Shown here one piece after another: positions 3,001 through 6,000 of a stretch of DNA of 12,758 bases. The stretch is from a virus. Each line of letters starts with the position of its first letter. Position 1 is the stretch's first letter. Location: the UHGV virus genome UHGV-0134735; one strand, written 5' to 3'. The position numbers are program-made.

Positions 3001-6000
3001 GGCATCGAAATGGTGATCGTCATCCTTGATACCGAGAAATGCTTTCGCTTCCTGCATAGCCTGATGCAGGTTAATTCCTCGACATGCCATCCACAAATCA
3101 AGCATGTCACCGCCGTCCCCCTCAGCGAAATCAGCCCATTTTTTCTTGCCGCTAAGGTTGACCTTAAGGCTGTTTCCCTTGTCACCGTTGACGTTACCGG
3201 CAACCCACTCATGCCCCTCTTTCTTGCCGTTTGGCAACAGGTGCGGAGCCACCCTGTCAACCTGCGCCCAAAGCAGGTCGCTAAGTTCACTTGGCGTCAT
3301 GATTCCCTCAGATTGAGATTTTTAAACCAGAAATCGACAAACGAAATACTTAACCAGCCGTGGTTATAACCAGCGACCAGTAGCGATTTGATTTTTGATT
3401 TCATGGTTCACCTGTCGAAAAACACGTAGCCAGTTTTCGATACGGTGATTGCGGATGATGGTTTGGATTGTGGTTGAATAGTTTCTGGCTTCTCGTCGTT
3501 CCAGCGTTGACCGTTCAGGTAGCTCGATGGTAACAACCTGTCGAATCCGAACTGCTTACCATTCCTGCATGCGATGTCTTCTGCCAGCATCGTGGCAAAC
3601 TCGCTTGCCGTACCCCTGGTAGTTTTACGCCATTCCCTGAACTGTGTTCTGAATGCCGAAGCTGCGTTTTTCTTCCCGGCTTTCCGCATGCCTGCACACC
3701 AGAATATTTCCTCGAATGCCTTGTCGGTTTCTTCGTGACGGTCATGTGATTTTTCACACTCCGTCCGAACACTTTCGGACATAGTGTTTTTATTATTTCT
3801 TTTTTCTTTTGTAATAGTTTCTTTTGTGTGTCCCTGTTTTGGTGACAGCGCTGTCACCGTTTTGGTGACACTTTTTGTCACCAATGCAGTGACATTATCA
3901 CCAGAGTAGTGACACCCTTCTATTTGCCATTCCTCGATGTTCTTGTTAGGCCCGATTTGCTGGCCTTCGCGAAGGATAACCTTCATCGCGATAAGCTCAT
4001 TCTTGGCCTTGTTTACCTTCTGTCTTGGCAGCCTGGTAATTTGAGCTAACTGACTATCAGAGATGCGATCCATCTTTTTACCGTAGCCGTATGTTTTACG
4101 GCATATGGCGTGGGCAACCTTGCTCTGATTTTTCGTTAAATCTGCGCCGATAAGCTCTTCATACAGGGCATTTGCAAGACGGGTATAACCATCTTCAACT
4201 TCTGCCACACGACGCTCCACAGGCCGTTGTGAAGGCCTTAAATGTGTTACGGTTGCAAGATTACTCATGACCTTTCTCCTTCTGCATCAGCTTCACTTTT
4301 TCCAACTCAGCTCGGAATCGACCAGGCTGCTTGAAGCTGGACAGGAAGCGATCACGTAGTATGTGTTTGTGAATTTTGTCCTGGTAAGGACTGAGTTGTT
4401 TTGTCATAATTACTCCTGTTGATAGATCCAGTAATGAACTCAGAATTCCATCTGGATTTGATCAGAACGCCCGGTCTTGCACACCGGGCGTTTTTTATTG
4501 GTGAGTTCATCAAGCGCATACTTAAAAGCCCTACTAATCGGACTGATGTCTGATGCCATTCCGAAAGCACACAAGACCGAAGCAATAAACCTCCAGTCCG
4601 TTCTGCTTATCTTCGATTCATGACAGCCAATCATCTTTGCCAAACCGCGCTGGGTAAGCGTTGACAGGTTGATGAGTAAATCAGTTTCAGCGCGATCAAT
4701 TTCTCGCTGTGTTGGCTTGCTGTAACTTGCTTGTGTCATTTCTTAATATTTCCAATAGTGAATAGTTAGTTGAAAGGTATGCGTGGAAACGCATATGACC
4801 TTAGTTGGTCAGATATCTTGGGACTCGCTTTGTCAGCGACGTAGGACGAATGTCCATTGTGAAAAGAGCGGATCCGCTTATTAAGCGGCTTGGTGTTCCG
4901 GCGGGAACACGTCATCAAGACTGACTTTTGCGCCTAACTTGTTTAGGCACGCAACAAGAGCACGGCATGTTTTAAGGTCTGGGAAGCGACGACCAGATTC
5001 CCAATGTCCGATAGCCCCCTGTGTGCATCCAACCGCCTTAGCAAGGGTTGTTTGAGAGATATTCAGTGACTCTCGATATTTTCGTAGGTTGCTCATATGC
5101 CCTCCATAGTAACCATGAAACAATAATACGATATGTACTCTTGGAATGCAAACAAAAAATACACCTTGTGCATGGATGGTTTTAGTACAGAGCGTAATAA
5201 TAAGGATATGAAAATGAAATGGTATGAACTGGCTAGATCCAGAATGAAAGAGCTCGGCATAACTCAAGAGAAGTTAGCTGAAGAGCTTGGTATGACGCAG
5301 GGTGGAATTGGTCACTGGTTGCGCGGATCTCGTCATCCATCTCTTGACGAGATTGGTGTGGTGTTTAAATACCTTGGTATTGATAACGTCTCATTCAACC
5401 ACGACGGTACATTTTCACCTGTTGGCGAATACTCATCTGCCCCCGTAAAAAAACAATATGAGTACCCTGTTTTTTCTCATGTTCAGGCCGGGATGTTCTC
5501 GCCTGAGCTTAGAACCTTTACCAAAGGTGATGCGGAGAGATGGGTCAGCACAACCAAAAAAGCCAGTGATTGTGCGTTTTGGCTTGAAGTTGAAGGTAAT
5601 TCCATGACCGCACCAACAGGATCCAAGCCAAGTTTTCCTGACGGGATGTTAATTCTCGTTGACCCTGAGCAGGCTGTTGAGCCAGGTGATTTCTGCATAG
5701 CCAGACTTGGTGGTGAGGAGTTTACCTTCAAGAAACTGATCAGGGATAGCGGTCAGGTGTTCCTACAACCACTAAACCCGCAATATCCAATGATCCCATG
5801 CAATGATAGCTGTTCCGTAGTAGGGAAAGTTATCGCCAGCCAGTGGCCTGAAGAGACATTTAGTTAACAGCATCACCACTCTAAAACACACAACAATAAC
5901 CCGACCTTAGCGTCGGGTTTTCTTTTTCCAAAATATAAATCAATAAAATACAAAGTGTTATAAAAAACCAACCATATTTAGAACATTTTGTATTGACTCA

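Follow-up and report, generated by a model that had tools for sequence, protein, structure and literature searches.

What lies between cII and the replication initiator gene in this lambdoid prophage, and does the terminator found inside the end of cII belong to an antisense RNA like the OOP RNA of lambda? The question was examined in a window of 12,758 nucleotides, the whole stretch analysed, from UHGV virus genome UHGV-0134735. The window is a lambdoid immunity-replication region with its early-right operon on the minus strand, and large parts of it are present as prophage, at 97-98% identity by megablast, in many E. coli chromosomes. We consider it very probable that the segment is the oop-orf48 segment of the early-right operon, in which OOP is antisense to cII and orf48 is a real gene.

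The interval between cII and the initiator gene

The features of the region are collected in Table 1. Both marks of a Phage CII activator were found in the cII gene, ie a match to Pfam Phage_CII and, at its 5' end, a TTGC-N6-TTGC box, TTGCTGTAACTTGC (positions 4717-4730 on the plus strand). Overall the CII protein is 39% identical to lambda CII, while its last 17 residues, encoded opposite oop, are nearly identical to those of lambda, as expected if this segment is constrained on both strands. Residues 1-157 of the O-like protein are 49% identical to lambda O, with the alignment beginning at residue 1.

Table 1. Features of the immunity-replication region. Coordinates are those of the window; RNA and promoter entries are predictions.
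Feature	Coordinates	Strand	Basis
Toprim/DnaB-type primase-helicase, 626 aa	1420-3300	-	ORF/profile assignment
O-like replication initiator, 286 aa	3408-4268	-	Pfam Phage_rep_O, 1e-37
Origin iterons, inside the O-like gene	3829-3914		
orf48 stop/O-like start overlap ATGAGTAA, 8 nt	4261-4268	-	O-like start codon at 4268
orf48, 48 aa	4261-4407	-	Pfam DUF2740 (PF10872), 8.9e-29
O-like Shine-Dalgarno AAGGAG	4276-4281	-	sequence
Predicted promoter pO: -35 TGGTAA 4382-4387, 17-bp spacer, TG 4402-4403, -10 CATAAT 4405-4410	4382-4410	+	homology
orf48 Shine-Dalgarno AGGAGT, 4 nt before ATG	4412-4417	-	sequence and lambda alignment
Predicted OOP antisense RNA, about 80 nt	4418-4497	+	homology to lambda 77-nt OOP
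OOP 5' stem-loop	4420-4464	+	MFE and centroid structures
OOP/cII 3' end overlap including cII stop codon, 58 nt (predicted antisense target)	4440-4497		
cII, 99 aa	4440-4739	-	Pfam Phage_CII, 2.3e-34; phrog_191, 1e-37
Predicted intrinsic terminator tO: stem 11-12 bp, loop CTTGCAC, then T6	4465-4496	+	scan and fold
cro-like HTH gene	within ORF 4881-5267	-	ORF/profile assignment
cI-like repressor	5133-5867	+	ORF/profile assignment

The distance from the cII stop codon to the O-like start is 171 nt. The first-pass annotation of this DNA had described a 170-bp gap, far larger than that of lambda; the distance holds, but there is no true gap, as orf48 fills it. From the cII stop to the orf48 start there are only 32 nt, the same as between cII and O in lambda (J02459, where cII ends at 38653 and O starts at 38686). 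What looked like a gap consists of the 32-nt spacer found between cII and O in lambda, together with an inserted orf48 cistron. The minus-strand 48-aa frame with its AGGAGT site, also reported at first pass, was found again. That site had been placed over the O start, which is incorrect: it precedes the orf48 start codon, and it is the last 8 nt of orf48 that overlap the start of the O-like gene. By alignment, the same AGGAGT is the Shine-Dalgarno element of the O gene in lambda.

The predicted OOP RNA, its terminator and its promoter

When the region is aligned with the reverse strand of lambda (J02459), conservation is base for base from TTTGTCATAAT through the whole of the OOP transcript to the T-run. 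Over the OOP region 72 of 80 positions are identical (90%), and the sole difference in length is the presence here of 3 extra nt in the terminator loop. Judged from this alignment, the region and lambda oop are directly homologous in sequence, which is more than an analogy. In lambda the 5' end of OOP is the pppG of GTTGATAG (PMC3349717), and homology predicts a 5' end at G4418 and a 3' end at about 4497. In Rfam nothing was found at the gathering threshold, and the hits with E as high as 10 included no OOP family, only weak terminator-like similarities to unrelated sRNAs. Rfam apparently has no OOP family, so this result is uninformative and says nothing against membership; as no Rfam model recognises OOP, the identification is made by direct alignment with lambda.

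The RNA from 4418 to 4497 folds as two hairpins with a free energy of -30.8 kcal/mol, compared to -15.9 +/- 3.0 kcal/mol for shuffled sequences (z = -4.9), and none of 200 shuffles matched the native fold. The terminator scan made its call on the plus strand only, with a 12-pair stem (7 G-C) at 4464-4494 and a loop of 7, followed by TTATTGGTGA; read directly from the sequence, T6 is 4491-4496 and the A that follows is 4497. The core of the stem, 9 bp and GC-rich, is formed by ACGCCCGGT and ACCGGGCGT. No U-run follows the hairpin on the minus strand, where UCUGAUCAAAUCC stands in its place, and the terminator is therefore unidirectional. Its helix is well maintained in an alignment of 15 diverse OOP variants, taken from prophages of E. 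coli, Klebsiella, Enterobacter, Citrobacter and Pluralibacter and from an Erwinia phage, in which 96.4% of cells are paired and compensatory double changes occur at 3 of the 11 pairs (for example, G-C to C-G in seven sequences). The 5' stem-loop is conserved in the lambda-type variants only, with 63% of cells paired over all 15.

The predicted RNA is convergent to cII, and its 3' part is the complement of the last 58 nt of that gene; the corresponding overlap in lambda is 55 nt (PMC3349717). Most of what had been proposed from a first reading of this strand is thus borne out, namely a plus-strand-only terminator with a 9-bp GC-rich stem and T6, its antisense position within the 3' end of cII, and a predicted OOP-like RNA starting near 4400-4430 and ending at 4497, ranges into which the ends predicted by homology fall. 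The promoter, which had been described as not clear from the sequence, can now be located as pO by its match to the lambda -10 region and to the P22 oop promoter.

We take predicted pO to be the promoter of OOP. Its -10 region, TG-n-CATAAT (4402-4410), is base-for-base as in lambda, and the homology with lambda stops just upstream of it. The record for P22 (BK000583) carries TGGTCA-17-CATAAT, labelled "promoter; oop; similar to phage lambda", with the same layout as pO here, and TGGTAA/TGT/CATAAT recurs in nearly all related loci having an orf48 of the 48-aa type. CATAAT is the complement of ATTATG, and the orf48 start codon sits within the -10 hexamer, at the place that the O start codon holds in lambda. 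In lambda, replacement of bases in the pO -10 abolishes OOP expression (PMC3349717), and a lambda/P22 hybrid has a pO made up of the lambda -10 and the P22 -35 (PMC3349717, Hayes et al. 2012). The -35 element here, TGGTAA, agrees with the consensus at 3 of 6 positions. A generic sigma-70 scan made no call at pO, because its two hexamers match at only 8 of 12 positions. Given the weak -35 and the lack of a call, the activity of pO is predicted from the conserved TG-n-CATAAT and from homology. The sigma-70 scan did call a 9/12 site, TTGATA-16-CAGAAT at 4419-4446; this site, which falls within the OOP transcript and shows no conservation as a promoter, was disregarded.

Coding evidence for orf48 and alternative readings

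The orf48 product matches Pfam DUF2740 (PF10872) over residues 6-48 with 99.4 bits, against a cut-off of 27, and PHROG 1913 (phrog_1913) at 2.7e-28. The protein is 100% identical to HK022 Orf48, HK620 hkaW and VT2-Sakai H0097, and 85% identical to the orf48 product of P22; the VT2-Sakai record (AP000422) names the frame "bacteriophage HK022 Orf48". Matches to the protein in the databases fall into 54 clusters, nearly all of 46-48 aa and restricted to enterobacteria.

Approximately 100 orf48-encoding loci were gathered from phage records, IMG/VR contigs and enterobacterial sequences, covering E. coli, Salmonella, Klebsiella, Citrobacter, Enterobacter, Pluralibacter, Shimwellia and Erwinia. A scan of genome contigs gave six loci, and the 80 IMG/VR loci all encode an identical Orf48 protein; the diversity for the coding test was drawn from further orf48-encoding contigs and annotated phage records. 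It consisted of 19 distinct sequences, with identities down to 67% in nucleotides and 58% in amino acids, the latter being that of an Erwinia phage copy of the same length. Among these 19, pN/pS is 0.32 in the orf48 frame, compared to 1.2-1.4 in the other two sense frames, variable columns number 25, 20 and 36 at the three codon positions, ie highest at the third, and there are no in-frame stops. The conservation of the 48-aa frame in relatives, on which the first-pass proposal of a gene depended, was thus found. On this evidence orf48 is to be regarded as a genuine conserved small protein gene of the DUF2740 family.

The order cII-like, DUF2740, O-like and helicase is invariant among the loci examined, and in 99 of 99 the junction reads GGTCATGAGTAA, with orf48 overlapping by 8 nt an O-like gene whose product begins MSN. 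The OOP types are diverse: lambda-type, VT2-Sakai-type, short P22-type and others. A (C/T)ATAAT box, followed 58-79 nt on by a hairpin and T-run, is present in every locus but one (L101), which has lost the pO -10 and retains an intact orf48. PHROG labels phrog_1913 a 'tail protein'; we rejected this label since the gene is always found in the cII-O replication context, and it is probably a propagated misannotation.

The protein is basic, with a pI of about 10. An AlphaFold2 model is a two-helix hairpin (helices at residues 7-23 and 28-44, pLDDT 79) for which Foldseek returned no matches in the PDB, and a profile search of PDB sequences gave a chance match only (E = 0.16). A literature search for DUF2740 found no papers, and annotations of function read 'unknown'.

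The uniformity of orf48 invites the question of whether the frame is incidental, ie whether the segment is a conserved non-coding linker that carries pO and acts as a joint for homologous recombination. In E. coli-type loci its 147 nt are almost invariant, and 68 of the 99 loci are identical in nucleotides, with variation on both flanks (70 distinct 367-nt segments). One and the same orf48 occurs with at least five different types of cII/oop on one side and two N-terminal classes of O-like protein on the other, and its first 26 nt overlap pO. Against a mere linker, pN/pS is low (0.32) in this frame only, the frame is free of stops in all 19 distinct sequences, and the length is kept at 47-48 aa behind a strong Shine-Dalgarno sequence. 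Residues are conserved along the entire frame, far past the overlap with the promoter, and L101 keeps orf48 despite the loss of its -10. We therefore consider this reading very improbable. It could alternatively be supposed that orf48 is a leader cistron and no more, whose translation delivers ribosomes to the O-like start at the 8-nt overlap and so sets the dose of initiator, the peptide itself having no function. The overlap is invariant (99/99), the nucleotides of the O-like Shine-Dalgarno-to-start region dictate the C-terminal residues KGHE, and in lambda the Shine-Dalgarno sequence used by orf48 drives O directly. Such a leader is nevertheless unlikely, as conservation of the amino acids spans both predicted helices and not only the 3' end, and a well-spaced AAGGAG precedes the O-like gene itself. 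No mRNA structure masking that site was found: folds of 106 and 206 nt did not surpass those of shuffled sequences (z = -0.4 and -1.1), which does not support obligatory structural coupling of orf48 translation to the O-like gene. Lambda O, moreover, works without any leader.

A further reading concerns the hairpin at 4465-4496, which might terminate a longer plus-strand transcript, or stabilise the 3' end of one, and not mark the end of a discrete small RNA. The weak -35 of pO is in keeping with this. Against it, the whole 80 nt, the lambda start and the -10 are conserved with lambda, where a 77-nt RNA is mapped, and nearly all relatives have (C/T)ATAAT 60-80 nt upstream of the terminator even though the sequence between them differs; we find this reading barely credible. 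Each of the three is less well supported than the explanation that we prefer, ie an OOP RNA antisense to cII together with a genuine orf48 gene.

Proposed function and comparison with known systems

In the preferred scheme, host RNA polymerase would start at pO on the plus strand and yield an OOP RNA about 80 nt long, ending at its own intrinsic terminator. The 3' 58 nt of this RNA, complementary at every position to the end of the cII mRNA, would form a duplex with it. By homology with lambda, RNase III would cut the duplex, CII would fall, and the phage would be pushed toward lytic growth. For lambda itself it is known, as cited in PMC3349717 and PMC12197685, that OOP is made and that it lowers CII through the cutting of the duplex by RNase III, and it is from the lambda work that we infer transcription of OOP, dependence on RNase III and an effect on lysogeny in this prophage. 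Directly ahead of the initiator, orf48 would be translated, using the ribosome-binding site from which O is read in lambda.

The small basic two-helix Orf48 might act on the initiation of replication, eg by modulating the O-like protein or the way in which it recruits the helicase or primase-helicase. We regard this as possible, if rather unlikely. Were it true, the invariant 8-nt coupling, maintained across otherwise unrelated combinations of initiator and helicase, would ensure a fixed stoichiometry, and lambda would be a derived form, in which the gene was lost by deletion between two ATGA start sites. Copies of DUF2740/orf48 are very common among the lambdoid prophages of enterobacteria, Shiga-toxin phages included. 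For oop, the gene, promoter and terminator are now precisely placed in a prophage, which is mainly a matter of correct annotation.

The arrangement itself has been annotated and published before, in P22 (BK000583), in VT2-Sakai (AP000422) and in PMC3349717, and the window is another member. The organisation cII-oop-orf-O-P, and the natural lack of orf48 in lambda, were described by Hayes et al. (2012, PMC3349717), and OOP is listed for lambda and Stx phages in a 2025 review (PMC12197685). The match of orf48 to DUF2740 and PHROG 1913 is full-length, without difference.

Compared to lambda, the oop locus shares 90% transcript identity, the TG-n-CATAAT -10, the start base and the two-hairpin architecture; in both, the antisense stretch covers the final 55-58 nt of cII, and 32 nt separate the cII stop from the next start codon. 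It differs in that the terminator loop, CTTGCAC, is 3 nt longer, which adds one residue to the C-terminus of CII, and in having a P22/HK022-type spacer and -35 (TGGTAA), which are located in orf48 and not in O. In P22 (BK000583), as here, the oop terminator is inside c1, the equivalent of cII, the oop promoter lies over the orf48 start, and orf48 overlaps gene 18; the gene order and the 8-nt overlap of orf48 with the initiator are common to P22, HK022, HK620 and VT2-Sakai. Unlike in P22, where the OOP body is of a shorter, 62-nt type and the -35 is TGGTCA, the body here is of the lambda type (79-80 nt) and the -35 is TGGTAA. The initiator is paired here with the 626-aa Toprim primase-helicase, and not with the DnaB-like gp12 of P22 or with lambda P.

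Linkage, possible loss and naming of orf48

In one relative, L101 (707-1647 of a Logan contig, SRR33528028), cII is separated from the 48-aa DUF2740-family gene, orf48, by an inserted HTH_ParB gene of 265 aa. The -10 element of pO, the promoter of the predicted antisense OOP RNA, is lost there and reads CATGCG, while orf48 remains intact, as do the 8 nt by which it overlaps the O-like initiator gene. Therefore orf48 stays with the initiator gene, not with oop.

The start of lambda O (L001, 887-901) is ATGACAAATACAGCA, encoding MTNTA, and resembles a fusion of the first 8 nt of orf48, ATGACAAA (within 4393-4407), to the window O-like gene from its third codon, ATGAGTAATCTTGCA (within 4255-4268). 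The O-like protein begins MSNLA, and its alignment with lambda O begins at residue 1. Judged from these sequences, orf48 may have been lost from lambda through a deletion between two ATGA start sites.

The product of orf48 (4261-4407), a protein of the replication module, carries the PHROG 1913 label 'tail protein', and is so named in several RefSeq phage records, eg NC_002371.2 and NC_008464.1. Because the place of orf48 between cII and O is fixed, the name looks like an annotation error that has been passed on between records. In the UNVERIFIED record of Salmonella phage PSP2-22 (L092, 1438-1908), a CDS annotated DUF4752 also contains a DUF2740-like stretch (81% identical). This stretch has neither cII nor O in its surroundings, and the sequence in the record may have been rearranged or wrongly assembled.

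The OOP terminator loop and the cII 5' end

A 7-nt variant of the terminator loop (4476-4482, in the context TCTTGCACA) adds one residue to the C-terminus of CII. The window shares this variant with some IMG/VR contigs and with Klebsiella prophages (L044, L063, L094-L096) whose OOP body is otherwise different, which suggests, at the level of sequence, mosaic exchange inside the OOP terminator itself. A TTGC-N6-TTGC box was read on the opposite strand at the 5' end of cII, and the CII-activated pRE promoter has the same arrangement in lambda and P22 (P22 annotation compared).

Replication genes and origin

The iterons, of the form TGTCACC-N5-GGTGACA, adjoin an A/T-rich tract within the O-like gene, and the replication origin is expected to lie in this stretch (3784-3914).

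Features read in the window
Feature	Position	Strand
TTGC-N6-TTGC box, TTGCTGTAACTTGC	4717-4730	+
Iterons (four, ~19 nt each)	3829-3847, 3852-3870, 3876-3894, 3896-3914	
A/T-rich tract	3784-3827	
35-aa ORF, after O-like gene	3297-3404	-
626-aa primase-helicase (Toprim + DnaB-like), after O-like gene	within 1420-3404	

In its C-terminal half the initiator is unrelated to lambda O, and the partner of the lambda P or P22 gp12 type is replaced by the primase-helicase.
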